A stretch of 64,000 nucleotides of DNA, taken from NCBI GenBank assembly GCA_965197745.1, contig CBDANS010000006.1, positions 160,001-224,000 on the forward strand, written 5' to 3'. The translations under genes were made by a program, and so were the position numbers. The stretch comes from Opitutales bacterium. GTDB lineage: Bacteria; Verrucomicrobiota; Verrucomicrobiia; Opitutales; PNEW01. The notes beneath the pieces were generated by a model. That model made no database searches and was not told where the DNA came from. It was given only the letters and a program-made list of their open reading frames with translations. Positions within the stretch are counted from its first letter, which is position 1; each line of letters begins with the position of its first letter. This document shows, in pieces, positions 14,863 to 45,026 of this stretch.

Positions 14863-16213
14863 TGATCGGACCCCGTATTTCGTATCAAATTTTAAGTGAG
14901 AGAACTACCGGGTGTTAATGGTTTTAGGATTGATGTATATGAGAGATCTTGGCGCAGTGAGGGCGTAGCCCGAACGCGGCCAAGAGCGGAAAGGAATGTG
15001 ACAAACTCTTGTGGGCTTTTAAAGCCTAATCGACTGTGGGGATGTTCATTGTTATAGGTCTGACGCCATTGTTCTATTACAACTTGTGCTTCAGCCACGC
15101 TGAGCAACACTTCACGGTTCAAACACTCATCGCGTAAGCGGTTGTGAAACGACTCGATGAAACCGTTTTGCCAGGGACTGCCCGGATCGATATATATCGC
15201 CTTGATCTTTTTGTCGGACAACCACTGCTGCACCTGATGAGCAATGAATGGCTTCGCATGTCGTCGCTTCGCTCCTCGGAACACTGCCGTTGTCACTGCG
15301 GATATAGCTAGGAACTCCCTCTTCATCGATGGTTTCGCTGAGTACCGAGAGAACATCGGTTGAGGTGAGCTGTCGAGCTACCCGGATGCGTAAACATTTA
15401 CGCGTATATGTCTTCGCTTCGCTTGAGTGTCGTCGCTTTCAGCTCCTCGGTACATCGATCAAGGTCATCATCTTTAGCATACCGCCATTGTCTGTACGAT
15501 CATGGACAAAGTCCCAGGACCAGACGTGATTGCGACCGGTTGCTTTAGTAGGGAGCCCAGTAGAGATCCCCTGACGGTGTCTACGCTTTTTCGGGGGCTT
15601 TACCTGTAAGCCCGAAGAACGTCGCACTGCCTGTACAAATTTCCTGCTTGCCGCCCAACCTTCTTTCACCAGCAAGGCACGAATGCGCCGGTAACCGTAA
15701 CGGGGATGTTCCCAGGACAAGGTCAAAATCCGCTCGGCCAATTGCTGAGCCTTCTTACTGGCCTGCTTGGGTCGGTAGCTGTACGTTGACCAACTGAGGC
15801 TGAGATAAGCACAAGCCCTCTAAAACGAGCACAGCCCCTTCTCAGCCGCATCTTTTACTGCTCGCTTCTTCTGCTTTGGGCTCACCATTTTTTTGAGAGC
15901 GTTTCCTCCAACACCCGAAGCTTGAGCATTTGATCAGCGAGCATCTTCTTCAGCTCCGTATTCTCCTTTTCCAGCTCTTTAAATCGCTTCGCATCAGCCA
16001 GCTCCAAGTTGCCATACTTTTTGCCCCAGCGATAGAAGGTCTGTTCACTTAGGTTGTTGCCGTGGCAGACTTCCTGCACGGTTTTGCCCGTATCGGGCTG
16101 CCGCAGTATTGCTATGATCTGTTCTGTTGTATATCTTTTTCTTTTCATTGAGGTTATCTGTTTATCCCGATAACCTCTCTCTGTTAATGATACCATTTTT
16201 GGGGGTCACTCCA
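14863..16213 (-). mobile_element. IS3-family element, type A copy 1 (inactive-looking)
   Basis: IRL TGGAGTGACCCCCAAAAATGG, IRR TGATCGGACCCCG. orfA MKRKRYTTEQII; orfB has WSWDF, SDNG, PWQNGFIESF, a TAG early in the frame and two micro-insertions. Confidence 0.93.
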
Positions 16214-17559
16214 AATCATGGAGGAGATTGAGGGCATAGCGATCGAGGTTATGAAGAATCTCAAGAATCTGAGCATAGTGACTGGAATCCTTGTGGATAA
16301 AGGGCGCTTACTCTTGGGTGAAGCGCCGAGGCATACAGAGCACATCAAGGGTGACACGCTGGGTGATGCGGCATCAGTGATCGAGTCTCTCCCGTCCGGG
16401 CCTGTGATTGAAGCGGACACCGCGTCCGGTGATCGACCTTGTAAGTAATGGGGCGTGGGTTAATTTTATCAAACCTGATAATGGATAACGAGCAATTAAT
16501 AGATAATACCTTTGTTCTCAGAGATAGACCCCTGCTTGAGCTATTCGATGCTGTGGAGCTTATACAGGGAGTTGTGGAGAGAGCAGTTTTTTGCGAAAAT
16601 TTTAGATCGAAACATTTCTTTTTGACGGACAATATCTGGAAACATCAAAGGCGAATTTACCCATCAAATGTCGGTATGCTCATTGAAAACAGATGTGCAA
16701 ATGCATTGACCGACTTTTACATGTGAGTCTTCATACGGATTCCAGAAAGTCCGCTGTTTAAGCTTCCCTGTAGACACACTTAAAAAAAGAACATGTCTGT
16801 CGAGCCAGCATAAACACACTTTACTGATCACAGCATGACAACCTCTCCCACCCGTTAGTCCAGAAGACCGTTATCGGCGCCAGTGTGTGGTAGACAAAAA
16901 GGGGAGTGCCGATCAGTAAGATCTGCAGTGACTGTGTTCCCGAACTGGCTCCCGGGTTCATCTGGACAGAAGATCGAAGTCTGTGAACCGCACAACACTT
17001 ATTATGTCCAGTTGATTTTTAAGTGATTGATATTCAACATATTAATTTTAAAGCCTAAATTCCTAACGGTCATAAAACAACATAAACTAAGGAGTAGCCC
17101 TTAATTAACTGCCGTAGTTTCAGTCGAGATTAAACCCTTATTGTGACATTAAAAGCTGTCCCGATATAGGGTGTTGTGCAAGTTCATTCCTGCAAGATGT
17201 CCGGGTCTGCATCATAACGATTCATCCACCTGGGATTCGTTCCGCATTGCCCGTCCGTCTTTGTAGGTCGCCGAGTCAACCAGTCAAATTAGTCTACTGA
17301 GTCAACCGAGTCGGAGCGGTATACAGCACAAGCATAACCCCGAAACGTAAGGCAAAGGGGGGCGGGGGGGGCCGCCGCCGAAGGCGGCCGACCCTGATCT
17401 ATCGGTCTGCAACGCGAAAAATATTTTTACAAAAGGAAACGTTTAGAAGCAAAATAATAAAACAAAACCTTATTAATTTGCTCTAGAAAGAACGAGCATC
17501 CTTCGTTATGAAATCAACCCTGTCCTGAGATCCAAACGCCCTTTCTCGAGGCGCTCAAG

Positions 17560-17674
17560 TACCTTGAATGGTGGCACAACAACAAGCTACAATCCCCACA
17601 TCTTTCCCGATATGTTGTGTCGGATCATGAATACGGGCAAACTCACTTATCAGTGACTGGTCAAAGCCGCGTGA
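17560..17674 (+). pseudogene. Possible IS1595 transposase C-terminal remnant
   Basis: Degenerate LEWWHNN..NPHIFPDMLCRIMNTGKLTYQ*LVKAA resembles IS1595 C-termini. Confidence 0.35.
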
Positions 17675-18357
17675 TATCCTGTAAGAAAATTGGAGTAGTA
17701 GCATAACTAGGAATTTCCTCCATCATCAATTGACTGCATAATATTCCTTGCCGTTTGCAGGTCACCTGTTTGAGATCATGTGGACAGTTTTTTAAAATAT
17801 CGGTGCCAGATTTCGCGTTTATCGAGGAGATGAGGGTTAAATTCTTCCAAACCAGGAAAATCGATACCTAACTTTCTATGTGCGGCGAGTAGATCTGTGA
17901 TCTTAAGGTAATCGTCGGGCCTGAGTCACCATCCTGAGCCGAGCATCATAACGATCCATCCACCTGGGGTTCGTTCCGCATTGCCCGTTCGTCTTTGAAA
18001 ACAAGCATTATCCATGCGCAAATAAAAAAGTAACACCCGTAACGTTAGGCGGGAGGGGCAAGCCGTAGCCTAACATGTGTAATCGATTTCACCTCAGAAA
18101 ATAAATTTTATATAAGCCGTTTACTCGAAAGAAAATTCTGAATAACCTTTTAACTAAGACACATAATATTGCCATGAATGTCGTCGGATAATAGCCTTTA
18201 AAATGGGAATGATATACTTCAAACCACATAGAGCAAAACAGCCTACACCATGACAGGACTCTCAAGTGTTCCCCTGTAAAGTTTATGAGACCCTTTCGTG
18301 TCATCCCCCCACAGGGCAACCGCTCTTACTATGTGTTCTGCGCGAGCTTTGCCCGCT

Positions 18358-19335
18358 CTACGGTCCCTCCTCTATATCCTCCGGATAATAGCCGGCGCCG
18401 ATCAGAATCGGCAGTCCAAAGGACACAACCCTCTTGACGAATGACACCTTGCGCTCCTCCATCTCACTCGACGGATTGCGCTTCGTGTAATACAGGAAGC
18501 TCTCTCCGAAGGCGTCCGCAACGCTCACAAGATCCTGGTCTTCGACCGGTCCTACCAACTCGGACATTATATCATCCGGCTCGCTGTATGAATCGCCACT
18601 GAACAGAGTGTAGCCATAAGTATCGATGGCAAACAAGTAGATTGATCCGTGTTTCCATCGCGGTTCCGTGGTCAAAGTGTTGATCGCAAAGTAGCCTTTC
18701 ATTTCAAGTTCCATCGCAGCGCAACGGACATACTCCTTCAGTCTCTCGTTGGAAGGATCGCTATCGAGCAACATGGCATTGACCTCTTCACTTGTGCACG
18801 CTCCGGGAATATCTCGGAGGTAGATCCCCGCACCGATCGCGGCCGGAGTCCCGTCCCAGTCGATGTTCTTGATGTAGGAAGCCTTCGGCTCATCCCTGCC
18901 TGTCGCTGGATTTGGGAACGAGTAATAGAGCCAGCCTTCATCGACGATACTCAGGATGCGCTGCCCTTCACTGAAGAATTCGTTGCCGAAGGCATCGATC
19001 AGCGGTCCCAACGGTTTCCCTTCCCTCGAGGGGTCGGGTGGGAAGACGACCAATCGCTGAGTCATGTCTGTCGCATCGGCGACAAAGACATAGATTTGGC
19101 CGTATCTCCAGCGCTCGTCTTCGTGGAAGGCCCTGCGTGCCTCGCTGAAGCCCTTTGCGCGGACATACTCGTAGGCACACTGAACGAACGCCTGTATGTC
19201 TTCAGGAGTGCGCACCGCGCGGGCGGCGATGGAGTGCTCCGTGCAAGACACAACTTCATGAGCGCCAAACATCGGCAGCACAACGAACGTTGAGATTAAG
19301 GAAATCAAGAATGGGCAGAGCTTGTGTTTCATCAT
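18358..19335 (-). CDS. Secreted stand-alone protein with two single-Cache domains (copy 1)
   Basis: Signal peptide, then two repeats of AFVQCA...W.YG.IY.F...GW.YY...NP.T...EPK.SY.K...IGAG.Y. No TM or output domain. Confidence 0.8.
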   Translation of the reverse strand: MMKHKLCPFLISLISTFVVLPMFGAHEVVSCTEHSIAARAVRTPEDIQAFVQCAYEYVRAKGFSEARRAFHEDERWRYGQIYVFVADATDMTQRLVVFPPDPSREGKPLGPLIDAFGNEFFSEGQRILSIVDEGWLYYSFPNPATGRDEPKASYIKNIDWDGTPAAIGAGIYLRDIPGACTSEEVNAMLLDSDPSNERLKEYVRCAAMELEMKGYFAINTLTTEPRWKHGSIYLFAIDTYGYTLFSGDSYSEPDDIMSELVGPVEDQDLVSVADAFGESFLYYTKRNPSSEMEERKVSFVKRVVSFGLPILIGAGYYPEDIEEGP

Positions 19336-19582
19336 TTTTAAATGTTCGGGATTCTTTGCTATTGGAATTTAGGAAAGTAAAGTTTGCGTTGGTAGCCTTC
19401 CCCTCTTGTCCGCCCCAGGTATTCAATGGCTCGTTCTTTGGTTCGGGAAGACTCAAATAGTTCAATTATACTCATCATAAGCAACTCTACTTCATTCGGA
19501 GCACAAGTTTATGAGTCCCTTTATGTCATCCCCCACAAGGACAGGTGCTCCTACCATGTGTTCTGCGCGAGCTTTGCCCGGC

Positions 19583-20557
19583 TTATGGACTCTCCTCCAG
19601 ATAATAGCCGGCGCCAATCAGAATTGGCAGTCCAAAGGACACTACCCTCTTGACGAATGACACCTTGCGCTCCTCCATTTCACTCGACGGATTGCGCTTC
19701 GTGTAATACAGGAAGCTCTCTCCGAAGGCGTCCGCAACGCTCACAAGATCCTGGTCTTCGACCGGTCCTACCAACTCGGACATTATATCATCCGGCTCGC
19801 TGTATGAATCGCCACTGAACAGAGTGTAGCCATAAGTATCGATGGCAAACAAGTAGATTGATCCGTGTTTCCATCGCGGTTCCGTGGTCAAAGTGTTGAT
19901 CGCAAAGTAGCCTTTCATTTCAAGTTCCATCGCAGCGCAACGGACAAACTCCTTGAGCCTCTCGTTGGAAGGATCGTCATCGAGCAACATGGCATTGACC
20001 TCTTCGCTGTTGCACGTACCCGGGATGTCGCGGCGGTAGATCCCCGCACCGATCCCGGCATGAGTCCCGTCCCAGTCGATGCTCTTGACGTAAGAAGCCT
20101 TCGGCTCGTTCCTGTCCGTCGCTGGGTTTTTGAAGGAGTAGTAAACCCAACCCTCCCCGAAGCTACCCACGACGCGGGTAAATTCCTTGACGATATCGTT
20201 TCCGTACACATCGATCAGCAGTCCCCAAGACACTCCTTCCCGCGAAGGGTCGGGTGGGTAGACGAACGCTCGCGACATATCGGACATGGCGGGCAATTCG
20301 TCCACGAATACGTAGATCGGGCCGTGTTTCCAGCGCTCGTCCTCGTTAAAGGCCCTGCGTGCCTCCACGAAGCCCTCTTCCAGGACATACTCGTAGGCGC
20401 ATTGAACGAAAGCCTCTACGTCCTCTAGGGTGCGCACCGCGCTGGCCATGATGGAGTGCTCCGCGCAAGACGGAGGCTCAGCAGCACCGAACATCGGCAG
20501 CACGGTGCACATTGAGATTAAGGGGATCAGCAATGGGCAGAGGTGGTGCTTCATCAT
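19583..20557 (-). CDS. Secreted stand-alone protein with two single-Cache domains (copy 2)
   Basis: Tandem paralogue of 18358..19335; the second domain is almost identical. Confidence 0.8.
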   Translation of the reverse strand: MMKHHLCPLLIPLISMCTVLPMFGAAEPPSCAEHSIMASAVRTLEDVEAFVQCAYEYVLEEGFVEARRAFNEDERWKHGPIYVFVDELPAMSDMSRAFVYPPDPSREGVSWGLLIDVYGNDIVKEFTRVVGSFGEGWVYYSFKNPATDRNEPKASYVKSIDWDGTHAGIGAGIYRRDIPGTCNSEEVNAMLLDDDPSNERLKEFVRCAAMELEMKGYFAINTLTTEPRWKHGSIYLFAIDTYGYTLFSGDSYSEPDDIMSELVGPVEDQDLVSVADAFGESFLYYTKRNPSSEMEERKVSFVKRVVSFGLPILIGAGYYLEESP

Positions 20558-21290
20558 TTGTAAATATTCGGGATTCTTTGCTTTTGAAATGGTGGAAAGG
20601 TCAAATTGTGTATAGTATTAATCAGATTGTCAATAATCTCAATAAGAGAATGCTATACATTGCTTGAGTACCCTTAACGCTTTTTCTTAGTCAACAATAA
20701 CAATGATGTTTCAAAAGGTAGAGTATTCAAAGAAACGGTTTATCCTCCACCAGACGCGTAATCAATACGTGATAAATAAAGGAAATTATATTTGTTACGA
20801 TAAGCAGCCATCGACTTTTCGCCTCAACTTCCAGTAGCGGCTTGAGATCCATCATCTGTTCTTCAAATACAGCGGCTAAGCACGCAAATATAAATGAGTA
20901 ATTCTTAAGGTTGAGAGGACCTTGCAGTTATTGAAGAGCGCATAGATAAAGACAAGCGTTTTTCGATTGGACGGAGATGGCTCTTTCTATCTTATCCTTT
21001 ACCGAAGACACCTTTGGCTAGCAATGTATATCATACCCAAAAGATTGGCTATTTCTTATGAATGGCTTTATCCTTCCGAGATCGACTTGCATATGTATTG
21101 TGTTCGGCGTTCAGGTCAAAGGCAGTGGTTCAAAAGTTATTATTATGAGAAAAATGATTCCACGTTATCGGCGTTACTATTGTAATATTTATTGTAACTT
21201 ACAATTAAAATATATGTAACTAATTGATAAACAATATATATAGTATAGTATAATTAGAACAGTTAATATCACACATTGAGATCAAGCGAC

Positions 21291-21456
21291 ATCTGCTCCC
21301 CCTATGCGCCCCACTTTTTGCTATTTAACGCTATATACTACTATTTAGTTTCTCTGGACATAAGCTATAAACTGATTCATAAGTGCTTATAAATTAATAT
21401 AAAACGTTGATTTATAAGGGGTACCAAGGAGGAGAGTTGAACTCTCTATTAAAGGC
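21291..21456 (+). repeat. att-like repeat copy 1 (arm-type repeats, IHF-like site, tRNA-Leu-like 3' end)
   Basis: TGCTCCCCCTATGCGCCCCA; minus-strand AATCAACGTTTTA (WATCAANNNNTTR) and GAGTTCAACTCTCCTCCTTGGTACC. Homologous to 34685-34840 and 36850-37011. Confidence 0.7.
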
Positions 21457-22602
21457 CTGTGTGGTCTTTGAGTATTATAATCAAGCCGCCAGGCTTCAAG
21501 TTTTTCTTTCGCTTGCACCAGCGTACAAAATAGCTCGGTGTTAAGAAGTTCATCGCGTAAGCGTCCATTGAAGCTCTCAATATAACCATTCTCTACGGGT
21601 TTGCCTGGGCGGATAAAATCCAGCTCGATGCCGTGACCATAAGCCCACTCATCCAGTACTTTGCCGGCAAACTCGGGACCATTATCGACGGTAATGGTTT
21701 GGGGAAGACCGATTCCTGCAGCGGCTTTCATAAGTGCGGCAGCGACTTTGCACCCACCGATGGACGTATCGACCAGAAGCAGTGGGCAAGCTCGGGTGTA
21801 TTGATCGACAACGGTGAGAATGCGGAAGGGGCGGCCGTTGACCAGCCGATCGCTCATAAAGTCCATCGACCAGCGCTCCTGGGCTGCTGAAGCCGCGGGC
21901 AGTGAGACCCGCCTTTGCGCGGCACGCTTCTTTCGTTTCTTCGTGCGCACTTCCAGCCCTTCGGCCTTGTAGATACGATAAACGCGTTTCTTTCCTACCG
22001 TCCAGCCTTCCCGCTTTAATAACACCGTTATTCGCCGATACCCGTAGCGCACGCGCGCGGCGGCGAGGTCACCGATGCGCATGATCAGCGCACGTTCGTC
22101 CTTCTTCACCGGCTGGTAGTTATAACTCGACCAATACAACTGCATCAACCTGCACGCCCGGCGTTTGCTAACCTCATAGGCTTCCACTAACCACTCACCT
22201 TCTTGCGCACAGGCTTTACAACTTTTTTGAGATAACTTCCTGCAGCATATGCTTGTCCAGGCTCAGATCAGCTACCAGCTTCTTCAAACTAGTGTTCTCT
22301 TCGTCGCGTTGCTTCAGCCGTCTTAATTCACTGATTCCCATGCCCGCGTATTTACTCTTCCAACGGTGGTAGGTCTGTTCGCTTACCCCTAACTCTCCAC
22401 ACACTTCGGCGATCCTTCGTCCGCCTTCAACCTGCCTTAGGGCATAGATGATTTGTTCTTTATTATAGCGTTTGTCAGGCCTTCTCGGCTGTGCCTCGTG
22501 AACCTTTGCTTTTCATGGGTCGTTCTTTCTCCTATTTTTTATTAGCTTTTTCACCCATGCCAGACTAAATCTTCGCTGGTCCAGTTTTACGGGGTCCGAT
22601 CA
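21457..22602 (-). mobile_element. IS3-family element type C, truncated at the RPH motif
   Basis: IRL TGATCGGACCCCGTAAAACTGGACCAG. orfA is interrupted by a 34-bp insertion; orfB has [21 protein letters not shown] and ends NTQRPH at the att-like repeat. Confidence 0.9.
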
Positions 22603-25118: not shown

Positions 25119-26467
25119 TGATCGGACCCCGTTATTCGTACCAGTTTAAGTGAGAGAGTTACCGGGTAATAATGGTTTTAGGATTGATGTATAGGATAGA
25201 TCCTGGTGAAGTGAGGGCGTAGCCCGAACGCGGCCAGGATCTGAAAGGAATGTGACAAACTCTTGTGGGCTTTTAAAGCCTAATCGACTGTGGGGATGTT
25301 CATTGTTATAGGTCTGACGCCATTGTTCTATTACAACTTGTGCTTCAGCCACGCTGAGCAACACTTCACGGTTCAAACACTCATCGCGTAAGCGGTTGTG
25401 AAACGACTCGATGAAACCGTTTTGCCAGGGACTGCCCGGATCGATATATATCGCCTTGATCTTTTTGTCGGACAACCACTGCTGCACCTGATGAGCAATG
25501 AATGGCTTCGCATGTCGTCGCTTCGCTCCTCGGAACACTGCCGTTGTCACTGCGGATATAGCTAGGAACTCCCTCTTCATCGATGGTTTCGCTGAGTACC
25601 GAGAGAACATCGGTTGAGGTGAGCTGTCGAGCTACCCGGATGCGTAAACATTTACGCGTATATGTCTTCGCTTCGCTTGAGTGTCGTCGCTTTCAGCTCC
25701 TCGGTACATCGATCAAGGTCATCATCTTTAGCATACCGCCATTGTCTGTACGATCATGGACAAAGTCCCAGGACCAGACGTGATTGCGACCGGTTGCTTT
25801 AGTAGGGAGCCCAGTAGAGATCCCCTGACGGTGTCTACGCTTTTTCGGGGGCTTTACCTGTAAGCCCGAAGAACGTCGCACTGCCTGTACAAATTTCCTG
25901 CTTGCCGCCCAACCTTCTTTCACCAGCAAGGCACGAATGCGCCGGTAACCGTAACGGGGATGTTCCCAGGACAAGGTCAAAATCCGCTCGGCCAATTGCT
26001 GAGCCTTCTTACTGGCCTGCTTGGGTCGGTAGCTGTACGTTGACCAACTGAGGCTGAGATAAGCACAAGCCCTCTAAAACGAGCACAGCCCCTTCTCAGC
26101 CGCATCTTTTACTGCTCGCTTCTTCTGCTTTGGGCTCACCATTTTTTTGAGAGCGTTTCCTCCAACACCCGAAGCTTGAGCATTTGATCAGCGAGCATCT
26201 TCTTCAGCTCCGTATTCTCCTTTTCCAGCTCTTTAAATCGCTTCGCATCAGCCAGCTCCAAGTTGCCATACTTTTTGCCCCAGCGATAGAAGGTCTGTTC
26301 ACTTAGGTTGTTGCCGTGGCAGACTTCCTGCACGGTTTTGCCCGTATCGGGCTGCCGCAGTATTGCTATGATCTGTTCTGTTGTATATCTTTTTCTTTTC
26401 ATTGAGGTTATCTGTTTATCCCGATAACCTCTCTCTGTTAATGATACCATTTTTGGGGGTCACTCCA
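25119..26467 (-). mobile_element. IS3-family element, type A copy 2
   Basis: Matches copy 1, including its lesions, except for the last ~130 bp at the IRR. Confidence 0.93.
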
Positions 26468-26958
26468 CGAAGACTATTGGAGAATTATCAAAAACCAAAA
26501 AGCTTCAGTTAGAATGGTGGAAATTTTTTTCTGATGAGTTATTAAAAAAGAAAGTAATACCTTCGGTCCGTAAACCACTACCTCAGTCATGGTACGATGT
26601 TCCTCTAGGAAGGAGTGGAATCCATATCTCAAATATTGCTAATACTTATGATCGTAAAATTAAAGTCCGAGTTTATCTGAGGACAAGCTCAAATGCTGAT
26701 GCTGCTCTTGTTCAGCTATTAGATCAACGAGAGGAGATCGAAGCAGAACTGGGGACTAAATTAATTTGGAATCCTTATCCAGAAAATCAAGATAAAACAA
26801 TTTGTGTTTATCATGATGCGGATATTTCTAAACGTGAAAAATGGCAGGAATACTGTGATTGGATGATTGATATGACTAAAAATTTTAGAGAGGTCTTCAT
26901 CCCGAGAGTGCGTGAACTTAATCTGAGTATTGAGCGTGAGGTTGAACCTGATAATTAA
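26468..26958 (+). pseudogene. DUF4268-like domain, 5'-truncated by the IS
   Basis: Not in the ORF track. LQLEWWKFF...RKPLPQSWYDVPLGRSGIHIS...REEIEAELGTKLIW...WMIDMTKNFREVFIPRV. Confidence 0.75.
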
Positions 26959-28006: not shown

Positions 28007-28113
28007 GTTTGAGTAAACATAGCACGTAATTGTTTGAGTGTCAATGATTTATATAATATAAATGAATGTATGAGGATGCATAAAGTGTGCATTGTTATTT
28101 ATAATATTGCAAT

Positions 28114-29431
28114 TGGTCGTGACCACGAAAACTGGTACACTTGAAAAGTTAGTCTGGGTAACCTAGAAAGGACTCAGACAATGAAAGGCAAAAGATACAC
28201 AACTGAAGAGAAAATACGGATGCTGCGGCAGGCGGACAAAGGGAAAACGATCCTGGAAGCATGCCGCGAGAACAACATTAGCGAACAGACTTTCCACCGC
28301 TGGAAGCGTGAGTTTGGGATGATTGATGTCGACCAGGCCAAGCGGATGAAGGAACTCTTTGAAGGAGAACGCGCGGTTAAAACGGATGCTGGCGGACAAG
28401 ATGCTGGGGATAGAGATCCTGCAGGAGACCCTCGAAAAAAAACTGTAAGCCCTGGGCACAAGCGGCAAGTGGCAGAGAGACTTGTGGCTCGGGGCCAGTG
28501 TTCGATGCGAGCGGGGTGCCGGTACTTTCGGCTGCACCGTTCCACCTATGCGTATAAGGCGAAGCATCCGGATGCTTGGTTAATGAAACTGAAGGCGGCA
28601 GTAAGGCGGTTATCACGGCAATATGCCAGGTGGGGCTATCCGAAGATCACGAAGCTGTTGAAAGACGAAGGCTGGGAGGTGGGTAAACGTCTCGTGCAAG
28701 GTCTACGACGCGAACTGGGCTTGGCGATCCCCCAACGCAAGCCAAGACGTCGGGGCAGGGGTGTTTCCACCGGGCTGCCGACCAAGGCCGAACATCCCGG
28801 CCATGTTTGGACCTGGGATTTTATCCACGATAAGACGGTCCGCGGTGGCAGTTTAAAAATGTTGACCGTGCTCGATGAGTACACCCGCGAGTGTCGAGTG
28901 ATCCATGTTGATCGCCATATCAATGCGGAAACGGTGCGCGGTATCATGCAAAAACTGCTTGCCCGTCATGGGCCGCCACAATATATTCGCAGTGACAACG
29001 GTTCCGTTCCGAGGAGCGAAGCGACGACATGCGAAGCCATTCATTGAAAAGGAATTGAGAGCCTGGCTAACTGCGATGAAAATCAAAACCCTCTATATCG
29101 AACCAGGAAGCCCTTGGCAGAACGGATACATCGAATCGTTGCATGCCCGTTTTCGCGAGGAGTGTTTAAACCGTGAACAGCTATGGACTTTGACCGAAGC
29201 CCGCGTGGTGATCGAGGACTGGCGCTGGCTTTACAATAATGTCCGACCCCACCGCAGCCTCGGCAATATCACCCCACGGTGCTTCGCTGAAGACATTAAT
29301 ACCGAAGGCTTGGGCTCCATTCGGGCTACGCCCTCATTGCGCCCAAGCCTTGACTTCCTCTACCAACTTAACTTCAACATTAACCTCTCCAGACTAACTC
29401 TCTCGGTGGACCAGTTTACGTAACCCGATCA
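28114..29431 (+). mobile_element. IS3-family element, type B copy 1
   Basis: IRL TGGTCGTGACCACGAAAACTGG, IRR ...CCAGTTTACGTAACCCGATCA, 1318 bp. Extra T in orfA and a micro-insertion at SDNGS-E-F. Confidence 0.93.
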
Positions 29432-29511
29432 TACACAACTCGCACATTATAAATTCAGAAAAGACAGCATATTTACTCTTACTCATTGATTGTGTCGACG
29501 ATTGCTTAAAT

Positions 29512-30740: not shown

Positions 30741-30746
30741 CTTATA

Positions 30747-35390: not shown

Positions 35391-36708
35391 TGATCGGGTT
35401 ACGTAAACTGGTCCACCGAGAGAGTTAGTCTGGAGAGGTTAATGTTGAAGTTAAGTTGGTAGAGGAAGTCAAGGCTTGGGCGCAATGAGGGCGTAGCCCG
35501 AATGGAGCCCAAGCCTTCGGTATTAATGTCTTCAGCGAAGCACCGTGGGGTGATATTGCCGAGGCTGCGGTGGGGTCGGACATTATTGTAAAGCCAGCGC
35601 CAGTCCTCGATCACCACGCGGGCTTCGGTCAAAGTCCATAGCTGTTCACGGTTTAAACACTCCTCGCGAAAACGGGCATGCAACGATTCGATGTATCCGT
35701 TCTGCCAAGGGCTTCCTGGTTCGATATAGAGGGTTTTGATTTTCATCGCAGTTAGCCAGGCTCTCAATTCCTTTTCAATGAATGGCTTCGCATGTCGTCG
35801 CTTCGCTCCTCGGAACGGAACCGTTGTCACTGCGAATATATTGTGGCGGCCCATGACGGGCAAGCAGTTTTTGCATGATACCGCGCACCGTTTCCGCATT
35901 GATATGGCGATCAACATGGATCACTCGACACTCGCGGGTGTACTCATCGAGCACGGTCAACATTTTTAAACTGCCACCGCGGACCGTCTTATCGTGGATA
36001 AAATCCCAGGTCCAAACATGGCCGGGATGTTCGGCCTTGGTCGGCAGCCCGGTGGAAACACCCCTGCCCCGACGTCTTGGCTTGCGTTGGGGGATCGCCA
36101 AGCCCAGTTCGCGTCGTAGACCTTGCACGAGACGTTTACCCACCTCCCAGCCTTCGTCTTTCAACAGCTTCGTGATCTTCGGATAGCCCCACCTGGCATA
36201 TTGCCGTGATAACCGCCTTACTGCCGCCTTCAGTTTCATTAACCAGGCATCCGGATGCTTCGCCTTATACGCATAGGTGGAACGGTGCAGCCGAAAGTAC
36301 CGGCACCCCGCTCGCATCGAACACTGGCCCCGAGCCACAAGTCTCTCTGCCACTTGCCGCTTGTGCCCAGGGCTTACAGTTTTTTTTCGAGGGTCTCCTG
36401 CAGGATCTCTATCCCCAGCATCTTGTCCGCCAGCATCCGTTTTAACCGCGCGTTCTCCTTCAAAGAGTTCCTTCATCCGCTTGGCCTGGTCGACATCAAT
36501 CATCCCAAACTCACGCTTCCAGCGGTGGAAAGTCTGTTCGCTAATGTTGTTCTCGCGGCATGCTTCCAGGATCGTTTTCCCTTTGTCCGCCTGCCGCAGC
36601 ATCCGTATTTTCTCTTCAGTTGTGTATCTTTTGCCTTTCATTGTCTGAGTCCTTTCTAGGTTACCCAGACTAACTTTTCAAGTGTACCAGTTTTCGTGGT
36701 CACGACCA
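35391..36708 (-). mobile_element. IS3-family element, type B copy 2 (inverted relative to copy 1)
   Basis: 1318 bp, nearly identical to 28114-29431 with the same lesions. Confidence 0.93.
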
Positions 36709-37172: not shown

Positions 37173-37624
37173 TGGGGAATAAATTATTACACTAAAAGCT
37201 TATAATTCTTTGGATTTTTAAACCTCCACTTCACAGGCTTAAGTAAACTTACTATCGGCAATAAGGGCAATAAGCCTTTAGATGACTAACCTCCATAGTG
37301 TTTCATCAGTAGTGGAATCATATTAGATATTGACCGGATTCTATAATTAATTTCTCGGTTTATATATGCCAATTTACTATACAATAAGAAGATGGCGACT
37401 CCTTGTAATATACTCAATTATAGGCGGTCTTTTTTCATTGATAGATATTAACTTAATCTTTCTGACGCAAATTATGATGAATTGATTAAATTATATTACT
37501 GTCTCTTTTCCGTTGGAATTATAATTGTCAACCAAATATCTAGAGTTATACTTTATCATTTCAGATTTATTTTAACCTATCCCCCATTTATAATATCAGT
37601 AATCGTTGCGCTGCTTATTACCCT

Positions 37625-38954
37625 TGGTCGTATCCACGAAAACTGGGGCACTTGAAAAGTTAGTCTGGTCAACTTAGAAAGGACTAAGACGATGAAAGGG
37701 AAAAGATACGGGTATTGCGGAAAGCAAACAGAGGGAAATCGATCCAGGAAGTGTGCCGCGAGAGAAATATCAGCGAGCAGACGTTTCACCGATGGAAACG
37801 AGAGTTCGGGATGATTGATGTGAATCAGGCCAAACAGCTGAAAGAGCTGAAGTTGGAGAACGCACGGTTAAAGCGGATGCTGGCGGACAAGCCGCTGGGC
37901 ATGGAGATTCTACTGGAGACTCATGAAAAAAAACGGTAAGCCTTGAGCATAAGCGTCAATTGGCAGAGAGATTTGTAGTTTGGGGCCGGTGTTCGATGCG
38001 AGAGGTGTGCCGATATTTTCGCCTGCACCGTTCCCCCTATGCGTATAAGGTTGGGTAACCGGACGCGTAGTTGATGAAGTTGAAAGCGGCCATACGACGA
38101 CTATCACGGCAATACGCCAGCTGGGGCTATCCAAAGATCACGAAGCTGTTGAAAGACGATGGATGGCAGGTGGGTAACCGTCTTGTGCAACGCTTGCGTA
38201 ACGAACTGGACTTAGCAATCCCGCAGCGCAAACCGAAACGCCGGTGCAGGGGCGTCTCCACAGGATTATCTACGGTTGCCGATCATCCCAACCACGTATT
38301 TACCTGGGACTTCATCCACGATAAGACGATTCGTGGTGGCAGTCTTAAGATGCTGACGATACTCGATGTCCCGAGGAGCTGAAAGCAAGGACACTCGAGC
38401 GAAGCGAAGACATGTACGCGTGAATACCTGCTGATTCATGTCGACCGTCATATTAATGCACGGTGCGTACGCACCACCATGCAGAAACTGATCGACCGAC
38501 ATGGACTTCCGCAATGCATTCGTAGTGACAGCGATTCGGTTCCGAGGAGCAAAGCGACGACATGCAAGGCCATTTATTGAAAGCGAATTAAGAGCTTGGC
38601 TGGCGTTCGTGAACATCAAAACCATCTACATTGAACCAGGGAGTCCTTGGCAAAACGGCTACATCGAATCATTCCACGCCCGTTTTCGAGAAGAGTCTTT
38701 AAATCGTGAGCAGTTATGGACGTTGACTGAGGCTCGCGTGGTTATCGAAGATTGACTCTGGCTCTATTACACTGTCCGCACAAACCTTAGTCTCAATAAT
38801 ATTACTCCGAGGTGCTTTGCCGAGGATGCCTATAAACAAGGCTCGGGCTCCACTCGGGCTTACGCCTCGTTGCGGCCAAGCCCTGTACTTCCTCTACCAA
38901 CTTAAACCTCTCCAGACTAACTTTCTAGGTGGACCAGTTTGCGTATCCTGACCA
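37625..38954 (+). mobile_element. IS3-family element, divergent type B' copy, degenerate
   Basis: IRL TGGTCGTATCCACGAAAACTGG, IRR CCAGTTTGCGTATCCTGACCA. Several stops and both micro-insertions. Confidence 0.9.
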
Positions 38955-39019
38955 ATTATTCTTGATTAATAAAACGCACGCATAGGCTTGTTCAGGGAAT
39001 TACCCGGGCATTTACATAA

Positions 39020-39050: not shown

Positions 39051-39055
39051 TTACA

Positions 39056-39289: not shown

Positions 39290-39294
39290 CCCTC

Positions 39295-39702
39295 ATGGCG
39301 TGTCTCGTTGATGCCAACGTGCTGTGCGAAGCGACTAAACCGAGCCCTGATTTGAGGGTTATCGAGTGGTTGACGCGTAACGAACGCGACTTGGCAATTG
39401 ATCCAGTGATCCTGGGTGAAGTTCGCTTCGGGGTCCTTCTTCTTCCCTCTGGGCAACGGCGACAAGATCTCGAACGTTGGTTCGACGAGATTGCCCGTCG
39501 CATTCACTGTGTACCGTGGAATGCCGAGACAGGGTTGCGCTGGGCCGAACTCCTAGCGCATCTGCGTTCTCTCGGGAAACCGATGCCAATAAAGGACAGC
39601 CTTATTGCCGCAACGGCTCTCGCTAACGGATTCCAGTTAGCTACACGAAATCGTCGAGATTTCGAAGCCAGTGGCGTAGAACTCGTCGCTCCATTTGTTT
39701 GA
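39295..39702 (+). CDS. vapC: PIN-domain toxin
   Basis: LVDANVLCE, ILGEVRFG, DSLIAATAL, LATRNRRDF. Confidence 0.92.
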   Translation: MACLVDANVLCEATKPSPDLRVIEWLTRNERDLAIDPVILGEVRFGVLLLPSGQRRQDLERWFDEIARRIHCVPWNAETGLRWAELLAHLRSLGKPMPIKDSLIAATALANGFQLATRNRRDFEASGVELVAPFV

Positions 39703-39845
39703 AGGCGACGGTGAGTAAGTTTCGATTGGGACCCCAACCAAATCAGGATCAGCATAACGAGCTGAAATAGGGGATTATCATTGACCAGCTTTTGCCTATT
39801 TTAGGAAGCAGACTCCACACTAAAAATAAAGAGGAGTGGCACATA

Positions 39846-40120
39846 ATGATAGCAGAGGATAAGATAAGCCCAACTCCACCTATAGAGAGGTTGCAGATCA
39901 AGTTCTTCAATGAAATGGGAAGTAGCCAGAACGCTTTGGCGAAGGTGATTAAGGTACTTTCTTCAAGGGGCGGCGGATGGTAACGGTAGATACGGAAATG
40001 CAGCTTGGACTTTATTTCGGGACAACCGCTGTGGTGCCGATGGACTTGCAGACTAATGACTATTTGCGCCCGGCGCTAATGATTAGGATGGTGCGATTGG
40101 ATACCAGCGCAGTGCCGTAA
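39846..40120 (+). pseudogene. HigA-like antitoxin remnant
   Basis: MGSSQNALAKVIKV...DTEMQLGLYFGTTA..MDLQ, in broken frames. Confidence 0.6.
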
Positions 40121-40990
40121 GGAAGGTGGAAATAAGATTTTACTTTAATGTGTTGCCTATAAGCAACACAGGTACGATAATGGTCGCGACGCTGACGAAG
40201 AACAGGTTGCCACCCACTGGCTCAGACGAACTGGTGCAACAGGAAATGCCGAGCACAACGATCAAGGAGGTACGGATATTAACAAGCTGGAGCGACAGAT
40301 TACCGTATTAATGGGTGTTCTCCGAGAATGAGTAGTAGATATCTCCTAATCCGACATTGCCGCTATGCGTATGCACATTGATGTGCAGAGTTACCAGGTC
40401 CATACTACTATTTACAACGGTGCAGGCGAAGGTTTGCGGTTCGGTCGATGCGAACAGGTTGCGAAGACTCTCGATGCTGTCTAGTTCGGCGTCAGCAGAC
40501 TGAAAATAGGCGCGAATTTCATCGAACGATTTATCGCAGTAGTCACCGCGGGTATTGCAGCGGCGTCTTCGGATAAGATCAGACGCAGTTAGGTTTCGAC
40601 ATCCATAAACACCGTATTCTGGTTTCTCCAATCGACCGACAAGCTTGCCTTTATGCGGGAGGATCTTGAGTTTTCTGAGCGGTGATGCTGTCCAGTCGAA
40701 GGGTTTAATGGTTATTGGAACGCCACGCACGTAACCAGCCTTGTGCCGCTCAAGCGCCCACGCCAATTCTTTTTTTTAGCAATAATGGGAAGCAATAAAG
40801 TCTGGGCTGACCAATGGAAGGAAGAGATAGCAAGATTCGAGTTGTTATGGAATTTCTTGATTGAGGTCCCCACCTGCCAAGATTTCTCGGTCAAACCATT
40901 CGATGAATCTGCCCTAGCGGCGGAGCATCGCGAGATGCATGTGAAGGCGATCCAGAACCTTATCGGCTTTGTGCGACTATGAGATGGACT
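40100..40990 (-). pseudogene. TIR-domain protein with several nonsense and frameshift lesions (3' end approximate)
   Basis: SHKADKVLDRLHMHLAMLRR*GRFIEWFDREILAGG...FLPLVSPDFIASHYC*KKELAWALERHKAG...PFDW. Confidence 0.78.
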
Positions 40991-41406
40991 GTACTAGTTA
41001 CGATAAGATCTGGCAGCGAATCATTGTACAGGAAAGTGAACAGTTCATACAAATTAACGGCAGTGAATTAGCGTACTCGACATATGGGGCAGTGCTCATT
41101 CTAGGTCGCAAAAATTAAAATATATTCCAAAGATCCATTTCCGAGAATCAAGTGGATTGATTCCTCTAGAAAATACCAGGCTCGTACGGGATCTGCACGG
41201 CCCATCGTATATTTATGCAGTTTTAATGGATCACCATATCTGGCTGGAGAATTGAAGCATGTAAAGGCCGTATTACCAAAATATATCGCTGGTTGCTTAC
41301 ATCCTATGCGCTCAATATTCCTCGCGTGTTTGATGTGGCGAAAAGCTTGTCGTCGGTTAATATTAACTAAAATCGTTAATACACCAAACCGTCAAATTGA
41401 CCTTCG

Positions 41407-42042
41407 ATGATACTTGATATCACTAACCTAATGAAGGGCTTATCTTCAGAGCGCCCAATCTTTCATACAGAAGCAGACTTCCAACACGCACTCGCGTGGT
41501 ATATTCACAAGAAGATGCCAGATTGTCAGCTTCGCTTGGAGTTAAAGCCTTTCAAGAATGAAAGGAAGTACTTGGATATTTGGCTTCGGGGCATGGGAAT
41601 CGCGATTGAACTGAAGTACAAAACTAAAAAACTGGTGTACTGTGGTGATGAGCCCTTTGCTCTCCGCAATCAATATGCTCAAGACTTCGGCCGATACGAC
41701 TTCATCAAGGATATTTGCCGGCTGGAGCAAGTAGTAACTCATTTTGAGACAGCCAAGGTCGCGTTCGCGATATTGCTAACAAACGATTCGTCCTATTGGG
41801 AACTATCGAAACCAGATCTCGAGGATGCTGCCTTCCATCTCAACAATGGGACGAAGATTATGGGCAAAAGGGAATGGTCCATGAAGGCCGACCTAGAAAA
41901 GAAGAAAGGCAGAAAAATGCCGTTATGTCTAGAAGGGGCCTATGATTGTGTCTGGCGAAATTACTCATCCCCTAAATTCGTGGAAGGAAAGAACCGGCAG
42001 TTCCAATATCTAATGGTAAAAGTGCCATGTCCAGGAACGTAA
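41407..42042 (+). CDS. Hypothetical protein, putative PD-(D/E)XK nuclease fold
   Basis: FHTEADFQHALAW...LDIW...IAIELKYKT...RYDFIKDICRLE. Confidence 0.6.
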   Translation: MILDITNLMKGLSSERPIFHTEADFQHALAWYIHKKMPDCQLRLELKPFKNERKYLDIWLRGMGIAIELKYKTKKLVYCGDEPFALRNQYAQDFGRYDFIKDICRLEQVVTHFETAKVAFAILLTNDSSYWELSKPDLEDAAFHLNNGTKIMGKREWSMKADLEKKKGRKMPLCLEGAYDCVWRNYSSPKFVEGKNRQFQYLMVKVPCPGT

Positions 42043-42357
42043 CGCTACAGACACCTATTTAGTCGCCGAGCCATCGGAAGTGGTGGAGTTGTGAAAGTCG
42101 CCCACAGATCCTATCGCAGTTTTAAGGGAATGTCGGTCTCGGCCAATGCAAGCTCTTGCAACTAAATTATCTCTTCTTTCTCGATGAGATAACGAGATTA
42201 TCTTTTCAATCTTTAAGACGTGAATTCGTTTAGGTGTCCTATGACGATAATATGAATCATTCCACCACCTTCTCAGCTAACACCTTTTTTCTACTGTAAC
42301 CCCACCCCTATAGATGATCAACCCGGCTGCACGCAGAGCGGGTCGTTACCCAATTCA

Positions 42358-43609
42358 GAGCTTCAACTTGCGGGGCACGACCTATCATGCCATACCAGCG
42401 GCTTACCAGTGGTAGAATCAAGGACGCAATCGTGTAATCTGGGCGGATTATTCAGGTCGGCGCAAGCTTGATTCAGTTGCTTCTGAGTTAGCCCTTTAAC
42501 TGGCGATTTGTTTCCATTGCCAGGATAACACAGCTTCGCACCGGATAGATTCGATTTAAAAGATTTGCCCCAGAAAGGTCTGCGTTCTTTAGAAACGCTT
42601 CGGATAAATTTGCCATCACAAGTTCTGAATCACACAGCTTCGCGTTAGCAAGGTTTGCACCCTCTAGAAACGCACCAGACAGATTCACCCCCACAAGGCC
42701 CGAACAGTAAAATTTTGCGCTCTGGCATTGTGCGTTAGACAAGTTGGAGCCCCAAAGATCTGTGTGTGAAAGACTCGCCTCCCTGAAGTTCGCACTGGAC
42801 AGATCTGCGTCCTTGAGCATCAACCCATGTAAATTAGCAGAGCTAAAATCCAAGTTAAACCTCTCTTTATTTTCGAGATCAATACCTTCTTTACTGCGAT
42901 CTCCGATAGCTTCCATAATTGCCTGAATATCTTTACCGAGGAGGAGGTCGGTAGCCTCTCTGGATATGGGTGGATTGCATACAAAGGCACAGAACTGACG
43001 CATGATCTGAATGTGATATTGCTCGAGATATTCCCTGGCTAGGTATTGCAACACGTAAATGCCGTTTAAACGCTCCAAGAGAACAGGGCTGAGCATTAAT
43101 TTTGTACCCTCCTGAGGTGTGTCTATCGAGGTCTCGCTACCGCCCATTTATGCAATCTCGTCGGGCTTGGCTATATCAGTCGAGCTACCTCGTCTCAAGT
43201 ATACTGTATTCTTTTCGAGTTTACCAAATTTGGTAGTGAGGTAAACGGGGCGCTTCTGGACCGCTATCGAAATGACTCCAATTTTGTCGCCGTTAATTAA
43301 GTGGGTATGGTATGAGAACTTAATTGACCGCTGAATTTTAGAGTTAACAAATTGCTGGAGCTGTGAGTCGTCCAGATCTTTTGAGATACCAACAACCTTA
43401 CTCCGCCCGCCTTTTCTCTCCTCCACACCGATCAGAACGTACGCAGTTTTATCGCGCTAGGCATTAGTGAAAGCGAGGATATCCTTGAGTAACTCACTTC
43501 TGGCATTCTTATCCGCTCCTTCGAACGGATACCGAGAACTCTTAAAGTCAAGGGTAATCCCTTCATCCTCATGGAGTAGCTGCTCAATGAAATTAGGATC
43601 TAAGGGCAT
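42358..43609 (-). pseudogene. AlbA_2 (Schlafen-like) domain fused to pentapeptide repeats
   Basis: From ATG 43609: EDEGITLDFKS...ELLKDILAFTNA*...YVLIGVEE...YLRRGSST..PDEIA*MG, then in frame A(N/D)LS repeats. Frameshift near 42555. Confidence 0.8.
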
Positions 43610-43670
43610 CAGTTAAATTCTATATGATTTATGAACTGGCTTATAGGTCTTTCCATCTTCCCTGTCAAGG

Positions 43671-45026
43671 TGATCGGGTTAGGCAAACTGGTCCACCGGG
43701 AGAGTTAGTCTGGAGAAGTTAATGTTGAAGTTAAGTTGGTAGAGGAAGTCAAGGGTTGGGCGCAATGAGGGCGTAGCCCGAATGGAGCCCGAGCCTTCGG
43801 TCTTGAGGTTTTCAGCGAAGCGCTGTGGGGTGATGTTGCCGAGACTGCGGTGGGGGCGGACATTATTGTAAAGCCAGCGCCAATCCTCGATCACTACACG
43901 TGCTTCGGTTAAAGTCCATAGCTGTTCACGGTTTAAGTACTCCTCACGGAAACGGGCATGGAACGACTCGATGAAACCGTTTTGCCAGGGACTGCCCGGA
44001 TCGATATATATCGCCTTGATCTTTTTGTCGGACAACGACTGCTGCACTTGATGAGCAATGAATGGCTTCGCATGTCGTCGCTTCGCTCCTCGGAACACTG
44101 CCGTTGTCACTACGGATATAGCTGGGAGCTCCCTCCTTTTCAATGGCCTCGCTAAGCACAGAGAGGACATCCGATGAGGGGAGTTCACGAGCGACCCGGA
44201 TATCCAGACATTCACGCGTATATGTCTTCGCTTCGCTTGAGTGTCGTCGCTTTCAGCTCCTCGGTACATCGATCAGAGTCATCATCTTTAATGGACCGCC
44301 ATGGTCTGTGCGATCATGGACAAAGTCCCAGGACCAAAGGTGATTGCGACCGGTTGCTTTAGTAGGCGACCCCGTAGAGACCCCTTGACGGTGTCTACGC
44401 TTTTTAGGTGGCTTTACCTGCAACCCTTCTGAACGTCGTACCGCCTGAACAAACTTCCTGTTTGTTGTCCAGCCTTCCTTTACGAGCAAGGCACGGATGC
44501 GCCGGTAACCGTAGCAGGGATGTTCCCAGGACAGGGTTATAATCCGCTCGGCCAACCGCTGAGCTTTCTTACTGGCCTGCTTGGGCTGGTAGCTGAAAGT
44601 TGACCAACTGAGGCTGAGGTAGGAACAAGCCCTTCGCAACGAGCACAGCCCTCTCTCAGCCGCATCTTTTACTACTCGCTTCTTCTGCTTGGGGCTCACC
44701 ACTTTTTTGACAGCGTTTCCTCCATTACCTGATTCTTAAGCATTTGATCAGCGAGCATCTTCTTCAACTCGGTGTTTTCTTTTTCCAGCTCTTTAAATCG
44801 CTTCGCATCGGCTAGTTCCAAATTGCCATACTTTTTACCCCAGCGATAGAAGGTCTGTTCACTCACGTTGTTGCCTCGGCAGATTTCCTCTACCGTTTTT
44901 CCGGTATCGGCTTGCCGCAGTATTGCGATGATCTGTTCTGTTGTGTATCTTTTTCTTTTCATGAGGTTATCTGTTTATCCCGATAACCTCTCTCTGTTAA
45001 TGATACCATTTTTGGGGGTCACTCCA
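43671..45026 (-). mobile_element. Chimeric IS3: type A left part, type B right part
   Basis: Type A IRL, orfA and orfB up to GFIESFH, then type B ARFREE.LNREQLW and the type B IRR. Carries both micro-insertions. Confidence 0.9.

Follow-up and report, generated by a model that had tools for sequence, protein, structure and literature searches.

What are the short hairpin-like inserts that interrupt the transposase genes of several insertion sequence (IS) copies in one stretch of an Opitutales genome, and how did they come to split the same conserved codons in different IS lineages? The stretch, hereafter called the window, comprises the 64,000 nucleotides of C6:160001-224000 in a 4.45-Mb genome assembled into 7 contigs and 92% complete, and the elements in question are IS3 copies whose orfB gene is broken by inserts of 32-43 nt. 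We refer to the insert element as X, to its subtypes as alpha, beta and gamma, and to its positions in IS3 as sites 1, 2 and 3 (s1, s2 and s3). The reading that we consider most likely, although we give it no better than an even chance, is that X is a hairpin micro-element related to the repetitive extragenic palindromic (REP) and SRM repeats, which homes to the word G^ART, disables IS3 transposases and hitch-hikes on IS3.

Ten inserts had been predicted in the window, and the cores of all ten were matched, with identical limits (for example 15250-15281 and 15410-15452). The site-1 core, CCGAGGAGCGAAGCGACGAC, has six matches, at 15260, 25514, 29009, 35794, 38542 and 44074 (five exact and one with a single mismatch), while the site-2 core, CCGAGGAGCTGAAAGCGACGAC, has four, at 15429, 25683, 38371 and 44243 (three exact and one with two mismatches). 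None of 100 shuffles of the window sequence contained the site-1 core, and for the site-2 core the chance expectation is likewise 0. Throughout the genome there are 64 exact matches to the site-1 core and 92 at up to three mismatches; the corresponding numbers for the site-2 core are 30 and 32. Chance or an assembly artefact is refuted by these expectations and by the recurrence of the same inserts in two complete genomes of another genus and in contigs from four independent sequencing runs.

A BLAST survey of the genome located 131 IS3-like loci, of which 76 are full-length, and copies were clustered at 97% identity. The full-length copies, of types A, B and D, include 71 that carry at least one insert. 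Type A includes two large clusters (cluster 3 with 13 copies and cluster 6 with 9) and so does type B (cluster 20 with 16 and cluster 22 with 13), the remainder being singletons. The inserted copies of the window had been assigned to types A and B, which is correct for most of them; the copy at 37616..38954 belongs to a third lineage, type D, and the one at 43661-45029 is a chimera of A and B.

Comparison with empty copies revealed the structure of the alleles. At site 1, in the motif SDNGS-E-F, alpha contributes 32 nt for a net gain of 31; at site 2, in LID-E-YTR, beta contributes 43 nt for a net gain of 42, in frame and with a TGA included. Both values confirm the original prediction, which missed a third site, in LRD-E-CLN, where gamma contributes 36 nt for a net gain of 35. 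This site is empty in the window copies and filled at 13 places genome-wide. All three sites follow a single rule, by which G-A-R-T becomes G-X-A-T, that is, AR is swapped for X plus A, and X always lies in the sense orientation relative to the host gene. Cluster 22 provides an allele pair, TCC G-AG-TTT when empty and TCC G-[32 nt]-A-TTC when filled. The proposed specificity for GAA codons was not borne out, since the empty alleles have GAG at least as often as GAA, and the target is better described as G^ART, a word common to all three IS3 sites and to the tRNA T-loop considered below. A nested parsing, G[..]A[..]A, had been put forward as restoring GAA; it can be drawn formally at every site and is unsupported given the GAG codons of the empty alleles.

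After in-silico excision, a type A copy contains only eight GART words on its coding strand. Six fall within orfB, five of these coincide with Glu codons in frame, and sites 1-3 belong to the five. Type B contains six such words, five of them in orfB and all of those in frame. The coincidence of inserts and Glu codons requires no translational logic, because the target is a 4-nt word that in orfB is mostly an in-frame Glu codon. In the window copy of a further lineage, type C, GAGT is confined to site 1, which carries no insert, as had been noted. Some type C orfB copies elsewhere (e.g. C6:1196723-1197471, C6:671633-672381 and C7:976747-977495) have 749 nt that align to 731 nt of the window copy, with about 18 extra bases.

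The hosts are ordinary members of the IS3 family in other respects. In L290, an empty type B copy, orfA matches HTH_Tnp_1 and orfB matches HTH_21, rve and rve_3, and orfB, which overlaps orfA at A AAA AAA, is read in the -1 frame, the standard IS3 arrangement. The terminal inverted repeats are of the TG...CA form and read TGGAGTGACC...GGTCCGATCA in type A and TGGTCGTGACC...AACCCGACCA in type B. Every insert interrupts orfB within the catalytic core, either by a frameshift (+31 or +35 nt) or by the in-frame TGA, so that inserted copies can encode only truncated proteins; the predicted silencing of the transposases is thus confirmed at the level of the reading frame. Intact potential helpers consist of four empty type B copies, two of which have an uninterrupted 415-aa fused orfAB, and an insert-free relative with open frames and similar ends (L167) is present in another genome, G060. 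The fusion is due to a 1-nt indel (TTT vs GA) about 250 nt into the element, which merges orfA and orfB into 415 codons and removes the need for ribosomal frameshifting. It was noted in the window at 28102-29438 and 35391-36708, and it occurs in 14 of the 16 cluster 20 copies and in 6 of the 13 cluster 22 copies. Two of all these fused copies are insert-free and should yield full-length transposase constitutively.

To judge how X reached these sites, we compared inserts with their flanks. Alpha is identical at 32 of 32 positions between types A and B, whereas their flanks, taken over 200 bases, agree at only 93 of 178 positions (52%; P about 1e-9). The identity extends to type D, the flanks among the three types being 52-57% identical right up to the junction and the shared flank only 8-13 nt. 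Beta is likewise identical (43/43) between genera as against 168/198 (85%) in its flanks. On a tree of 121 IS copies from which the inserts had been masked, the minimum number of state changes was 9 for s1, 7 for s2 and 7 for s3, and relatives in the genomes G032 and G060 display all four combinations of s1 and s2 states; one set of 32 near-identical copies in G060 carries beta alone. Gamma is found at site 3 in this genome and at site 1 in two other elements, the marine metagenome IS3 L222 and L004 of genome G114, the latter a relative of the window type C element with a gamma-type insert at the site-1 codon. The occurrence of one subtype at different sites in different IS lineages points to independent insertions. 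L222 was the one true case among the matches listed (at least 120 loci) from a pattern scan of metagenomes, which was too loose to yield a frequency, the other matches being due to chance.

Much of this pattern could in principle have arisen without any movement of X itself. Three REP-like sequences, or a few, may have inserted by accident long ago and become fixed in ancestral IS3 elements, so that X, now immobile and with no targeting, has since spread only by IS3 transposition in trans and by recombination or gene conversion. The confinement of alpha to site 1, beta to site 2 and gamma to site 3 in this genome agrees with such inheritance, as do the decayed inserts of old decayed IS copies (clusters 28, 16 and 10), the existence of the insert-free open copies able to act as helpers, and the mosaic copies and A/B chimeras, which show that recombination is frequent. 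Cluster 22 points the same way in one respect, in that its filled allele differs from the empty one also in the adjoining codon (A TTC vs AG TTT), as in co-conversion. Other observations speak for movement: the 9 filled and 4 empty copies of this cluster (at least 97% identity) are otherwise almost identical, a linked indel marker among them occurs in all four combinations with the filled or empty state, and in two chimeras from two genomes (cluster 5 and L131) the type switches exactly at alpha. In the window chimera the switch lies farther downstream. No clean pair was found when orthologous loci of G032, G060 and G000 were searched for the same IS insertion with gain or loss of X in place. 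We nevertheless regard inheritance as rather unlikely, since it has to explain an identical alpha in three lineages with a mere 8-13 nt of shared flank available for conversion, gamma at two different sites, and the presence of the same module in an unrelated target. The original prediction had described an inherited lesion as a single ancestral event with long co-converted flanks and a motif found nowhere else, and on each count that could be tested the data are otherwise.

The unrelated target is the T-loop of tRNA gene copies. A search of 201 Opitutales genomes from 104 genera, allowing up to one mismatch, found the module in 22 genomes and 18 genera, and the reversed pattern that served as a control gave 0 in the genomes listed. 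The proposed family of tiny hairpin elements in other contexts and genomes is therefore supported by the motif search. With the exact pattern, a scan of species genomes detected the module also in Woeseiaceae, Spirochaetia/Treponema, Puniceicoccaceae and other metagenome-assembled genomes, together with many high-GC matches that look like chance matches in coding sequence. At several loci in other genomes the module is situated just downstream of a real tRNA gene, within a partial copy of the T-arm and 3' end, where the insertion point is TTCG^AATCC and units of 110-123 nt are at times arranged in tandem. In the genome studied here, partial tRNA copies are split in the T-loop at GGTTCG^ATCC: the tRNA-Asn gene (C6:355392-355466; region to 355700) is followed by two such units and the tRNA-Gln gene (C5:236387-236460; region to 236620) by one. 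Each unit contains a left arm complementary to the T-stem of its own tRNA plus a copy of the T-stem and 3' end, with X in the T-loop. The surroundings of the tRNA-Asn and tRNA-Gln units, examined to a distance of about 6 kb, contain no integrase or phage genes. When module loci were compared with Rfam, only adjoining ordinary tRNA genes exceeded the gathering score, and no RtT match was listed. A permissive pattern applied to this genome outside the IS3 loci returned the three tRNA-linked units, one gamma in an IS3 fragment absent from the locus list, and one odd copy. That T-loop copies from several phyla are split at this very word is hard to reconcile with lesions inherited within IS3.

All inserts share a conserved left module, T(T/A/C)CC-GAGGA-[GNA-triloop mini-hairpin]-GACGAC-A, followed by a second, variable mini-hairpin and a C before the retained A, which gives a C-C-A-like tail; the observed ends are ...GCC-A, ...GAC-A, ...CTC-A and ...CCC-A. 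The mini-hairpins have 2-3 bp and GNA loops, the first being placed between GAGGA and GACGA, and there is no outer stem. Variants of hairpin 1 include GCGNAGC with all four bases at N, GCT-GAA-AGC, ACGTAGT and ACGAAGT, of which the last two alter both sides of the closing pair, indicative of covariation; the loci from the exact-pattern scan of species genomes had been preselected with GCGNAGC fixed. Nearest-neighbour folding of the insert regions as RNA and as DNA, on both strands, gave no fold beyond that of shuffled sequences (z 0 to +1.9), under a model without a special term for GNA mini-hairpins. The predicted hairpin is thus supported by covarying variants and not by folding energies, and the argument for it draws on covariation together with the behaviour of d(GCGAAGC), which, according to Hirao and co-workers, reportedly forms an exceptionally stable mini-hairpin as DNA. 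A scan of the window gave no match to any Rfam family, and a search for tRNA genes in the window found none. Group I or II introns and inteins can be rejected as the source of X in view of the insert length, the lack of an Rfam match in the window, the broken frames and the lack of a match to the reverse transcriptase profile RVT_1 in the genome. Termini of the form TG...CA, 2-nt duplications (TT..TT, TA..TA) and an integron-like G^TT crossover were also considered, and none fits all sites.

Part of X is found in a second repeat. The genome contains about 150 matches to a repeat, R1, which has a TGTC head, an ATTGC...GCAAT stem that starts with AT, a CCA tail (GCAAT-CCA) and a long structured interior. 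Aligned by eye, the core of X in its left module is identical to the inner part of R1 at about 18 of 19 positions. R1 fits the description of the CGTC/TGTC-type REPs, which carry CCA tails and occur also inside genes, the intragenic ones being most numerous in Opitutus terrae, according to the parts of the survey that treat them (Di Nocera et al. 2013, PMC3733652). In these passages, which include the Rickettsia palindromic elements, such REPs resemble X in being hairpin repeats of 20-40 nt with an unpaired CCA-like tail and variable loops, in occurring in several phyla and sometimes inside protein genes, and in having no dedicated transposase known (PMC3733652). They differ in their stem of 8-9 bp starting with A-T and loop of 4-5 nt, as given there (PMC3733652), since X has two mini-hairpins, no outer stem and no CGTC head. 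Where such REPs have an unpaired CGTC (or TGTC/CCTC) head next to the stem, X reads G-T-(T/A/C)-C-C, and any resemblance to that head is confined to the rare GTCC variant. Compared with the REPs of that description, X is also peculiar in replacing two bases at a fixed 4-nt word, out of frame and with destruction of the host gene, and in being confined here to IS3 transposase genes and tRNA T-loop copies (PMC3733652). Many R1 copies (e.g. C6:123729 and C6:916420) have GGC-TACCGAG-[variable hairpin]-GACATCTTCC-ATTCCAGG where others have GGC-AATCCAGG, which looks like a second nested hairpin module.

On the reading of X as a homing hairpin element, it would act as folded single-stranded DNA (ssDNA), and an ssDNA enzyme specific for hairpins would cut or copy it in trans, for which small Ssn-like GIY-YIG nucleases flanked by R1 and the single RAYT-like Y1 transposase (RAYT, REP-associated tyrosine transposase) are candidates. 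Entry could proceed through short templated copying, with G-X-A-T as the donor and a nicked G-A-R-T as the recipient, and with the loss of one base. Inserted copies, no longer autonomous, would then be multiplied by the few IS3 copies that are still intact, presumably through mobilisation in trans, and inserts would move between IS lineages by recombination at or beside the insert. X would thereby be a hyperparasite of IS3, with the side effect that most IS3 copies in this genome are unable to make transposase.

Among the candidate enzymes, the GIY-YIG family has eight matches in the genome, and UPF0213 is the only relative of these proteins in the PDB. Three small genes of about 100 aa lie between inverted R1 copies (C7:1541977-1542282, with a 102-aa product, C7:1545599-1545904 and C7:483586-483879), a layout seen with R1 and not with X. 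A further GIY-YIG protein, of 92 aa, is encoded at C5:56581-56856. In their layout the three genes match the Ssn cassettes, in which a small single-domain GIY-YIG gene lies between oriented hairpin repeats with many dispersed copies, as portrayed in passages of Chenal et al. 2025 (PMC11893778). The Ssn nucleases are described there as binding and cutting NTS/SRM hairpins only as ssDNA (PMC11893778), a restriction that agrees with DNA hairpins of the GNA-triloop type and with strand-specific insertion. The SRM motif differs, however, in fitting neither R1 nor X, and the passages on Ssn describe a nuclease and no insertion of repeats (PMC11893778). Many solitary R1 copies are followed by the apparent 3' end of a small GIY-YIG gene, and at C7:982391-982645, among numerous IS3 fragments, a 128-aa GIY-YIG gene directly abuts a type B IS3 at its end.

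The RAYT-like gene is a weak candidate for the mobilisation of X. In the REPIN/RAYT systems, as presented in the portions of PMC3116915, PMC3337134 and PMC2817692 devoted to them, a Y1 HUH transposase encoded by a single-copy gene acts in trans to mobilise hairpin repeats that are not autonomous. The genome resembles these systems (PMC3116915, PMC3337134) in having one RAYT-like gene, which is located in the window (3146-3742, -) and has its best score as a REP-associated tyrosine transposase. It differs in that no GTAG head is present, no repeats flank the gene, the NCBIfam score is under the cut-off (66 vs 80 bits) and the gene is shorter. Its product has 198 aa vs about 330 aa in relatives, and an overlapping 171-aa frame (2760-3275, -) may be the displaced C-terminal part; an IS4-type DDE transposase gene (DDE_Tnp_1, Nterm_IS4; 1464-2714, -) adjoins it. 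A search for IS91-type (Y2) transposases gave no match here, nor in any of 14 control genomes, and is thus uninformative on their absence. The palindrome-associated transposable elements of the IS200/IS605 kind have subterminal hairpins at both ends and insert 3' of a fixed target of 4-5 nt, with neither gain nor loss of bases. Compared with these, X shows two hairpins and a fixed target word, yet loses one base per IS3 site. The SDR repeats described in Nostocaceae by Elhai and co-workers in 2008 are said to measure about 21-27 nt, and we know of no reported preference of these for transposase genes. They differ from X in phylum, sequence and target. They are similar in appearing mobile, in being nested in other repeats and in using a specific short target (HIP1 for SDR5), as summarised in part of PMC5861425.

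Several observations weigh against X as a homing hairpin element. The loss of one base at every IS3 site fits no known transposition chemistry. No enzyme is linked to X: the module is absent within 1.5 kb of six RAYT-like genes, and neither R1 nor X lies beside the RAYT-like gene of the window. The published SRM motif has 16 matches in the genome vs 19 in a reversed-sequence control, and is thus not enriched, and neither R1 nor X in its context fits it. RAYT-like genes are present in 15 of the 22 module genomes vs 44 of the 179 others, and two GIY-YIG types in 5/22 vs 8/179 and 14/22 vs 33/179, respectively, but in these cross-tabulations, made by hand, genome size and kinship act as confounders. 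Within this genome a given subtype keeps to a single site and there are no free copies beyond the three tRNA-linked units, so that recent mobility could be nil. No insert-free and otherwise intact type A copy exists in the assembly, even though the type A clusters hold 13 and 9 near-identical copies, and the inverted repeats of type A differ from those of type B, which leaves the mobilisation of type A unexplained. Finally, with X excised in silico, the four large clusters have complete frames in 13/13, 8/9, 15/16 and 13/13 of their copies, and so does L222, while the variants shared within clusters comprise 17 synonymous and 12 non-synonymous changes where 77% non-synonymous would be expected; this would also fit copies that still need to code.

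These last results raise the question of whether X is a functional switch, that is, a part of the IS kept over long periods and either skipped by the ribosome (by hopping, frameshifting or read-through) or removed from the RNA or DNA in some molecules. X is the sole lesion in 49 of the 51 copies of the large clusters and in L222, and the 32 beta copies of G060 would have an open orfB but for the single TGA in beta. Clusters 3 and 6 differ by a synonymous divergence (dS) of 0.37 with a dN/dS ratio of 0.15, and yet their alpha and beta inserts are identical and so conserved far above synonymous sites. The lack of an intact type A copy would also be understandable if filled copies worked. The coding capacity of filled copies could thus still be under selection, but recombination with lineages that evolved while intact is a confounding factor, and neither the within-cluster substitutions nor the between-cluster dN/dS can separate copies that still code from variation imported by recombination.

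Translational bypass inserts are known from mitochondria, where they are called byps. A mobile element that encodes ribosomal bypassing is on record for relatives of phage T4 gene 60, and the inserts of this type resemble X as short non-coding inserts in conserved coding sequence that spread as mobile DNA, to judge from the portion of bioRxiv 10.1101/2022.08.31.505936 that concerns them. Unlike these, X has no take-off and landing codons common to the three sites, and there is no evidence of a full-length product. The frame downstream is open across alpha and gamma, and in beta the TGA is closely preceded by a Shine-Dalgarno-like GAGGAG; recoding would still have to take a different form at each site, namely +1, stop read-through or a hop, and -1. 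Programmed bypassing calls for matched take-off and landing codons, with a stop or hungry codon following the take-off. Candidate codon pairs can be drawn for beta (AGC...AGC) and alpha (GCG...GCG) and not for gamma, and sequence reading found neither a take-off/landing nor a frameshift signal that would serve at every site. A restart of translation within alpha (GAGGAG ... ATG) was rejected, the ATG being in the wrong frame.

Removal of X from nucleic acids is no better supported. Contiguous removal cannot restore a frame with Glu because the filled site reads G-[X]-A and is one base short. Contigs from two metatranscriptome runs contain filled site 1 (X18, which crosses it) and a gamma-filled allele. 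The empty joints in the RNA-library contigs X18 and X20 read G-AG-TTC, an allele also found as DNA; these joints cannot be derived from G-X-A-TTC and hence provide no evidence of removal of X from RNA. Empty alleles occur also in two other runs, of unspecified kind, one of which has a type A copy with G-AG-TTC and the other a type B copy with TCC-TAG-TTC. The joint expected from precise excision was absent from the contigs of the runs examined, a check on assembled contigs only, which rare joints could escape and in which gaps in cover and depths are uninterpretable. A search of this 92%-complete genome that gave no match to a reverse transcriptase gene, and the stability of d(GCGAAGC) as DNA, which suggests a DNA-level role, also disfavour a switch. 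In view of the filled copies in RNA-library contigs, the underivable GAG joints and the lack of a common signal, we consider the removable or bypassed switch of the original prediction very unlikely.

The features of the window are listed in Table 1. Two adjacent paralogous genes for dCache/sCache sensor domains (18358-19335 and 19583-20557, both -) are located between IS3 copies.

Table 1. IS3 copies, X inserts and related genes in the window, with the basis of each assignment.
Feature	Position	Strand	Basis
IS3 type A copy (cluster 3) with alpha and beta	14868..16226	-	Repeat limits, clustering; after excision orfA (107 aa) and orfB (284 aa, open) both continuous
Alpha insert, 32 nt, net +31, site 1 SDNGS-E-F	15250..15281	-	Core match, sequence reading, empty-copy comparison
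Beta insert, 43 nt, net +42, in-frame TGA, site 2 LID-E-YTR	15410..15452	-	Core match, sequence reading, empty-copy comparison
orfB of type C IS3 lineage, DNGP-GAG-TTT, uninserted	21387..22187	-	Sequence reading
IS3 type A copy (cluster 3)	25124..26468	-	Repeat limits, clustering, in-silico excision
Alpha insert, site 1	25504..25535	-	Core match
Beta insert, site 2	25664..25706	-	Core match
IS3 type B copy (cluster 20), fused orfAB variant, 415 aa open after in-silico excision	28102..29438	+	Repeat limits, clustering
Alpha insert, site 1	29007..29038	+	Core match, empty-copy comparison
IS3 type B copy (cluster 20)	35391..36708	-	Clustering, in-silico excision
Alpha insert, site 1	35784..35815	-	Core match
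Degenerate type D IS3 copy (cluster 28; third lineage), both its beta and its alpha decayed	37616..38954	+	Clustering, mosaic analysis
Beta insert variant, 2 core mismatches	38369..38411	+	Core match
Alpha insert variant, hairpin GCAAAGC	38540..38571	+	Core match
IS3 copy (cluster 15), A/B chimera: type A to beyond site 1, 3' part type B-like	43661..45029	-	Clustering, chimera check
Alpha insert, site 1	44064..44095	-	Core match
Beta insert, site 2	44224..44266	-	Core match
RAYT-like Y1 (HUH) transposase gene, candidate mobilising enzyme	3146..3742	-	Only PF01797 match in the genome

A literature search for hairpin micro-inserts in transposase genes found none, which is not proof that none have been described. 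It is conceivable, though we think it unlikely, that the X elements constitute an undescribed class and the smallest homing DNA known (32-44 nt and geneless), copied by an ssDNA nuclease of the Ssn-type GIY-YIG or RAYT-like kind into exposed single-stranded G^ART, and that REP and nuclease together restrain IS3 throughout the genome, in the manner of a domesticated 'anti-transposon'. The targets that tolerate insertion would then be T-loops in dead copies of tRNAs and codons of the catalytic core of IS3 transposases. A bolder variant of the same proposal holds that filled copies are functional because X is skipped or removed, which, if true, would represent a new form of gene interruption in bacteria.

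Hairpin repeats of the REP type are among the commonest unexplained bacterial sequences, and the CGTC type has no known mobilising enzyme. The elements described here offer clean material for the study of how such repeats spread and what they do: near-identical copies supply exact alleles with and without the insert, the target is a defined word of 4 nt that recurs in another, unrelated kind of sequence, there are three subtypes, and candidate ssDNA enzymes are encoded in the same genome. They also join intragenic REPs, hairpin-plugged copies of tRNA ends and Ssn/REP cassettes, which have so far been treated apart. Elements of this kind may silence most copies of an IS, which bears on how IS-rich symbiont genomes restrain transposition.

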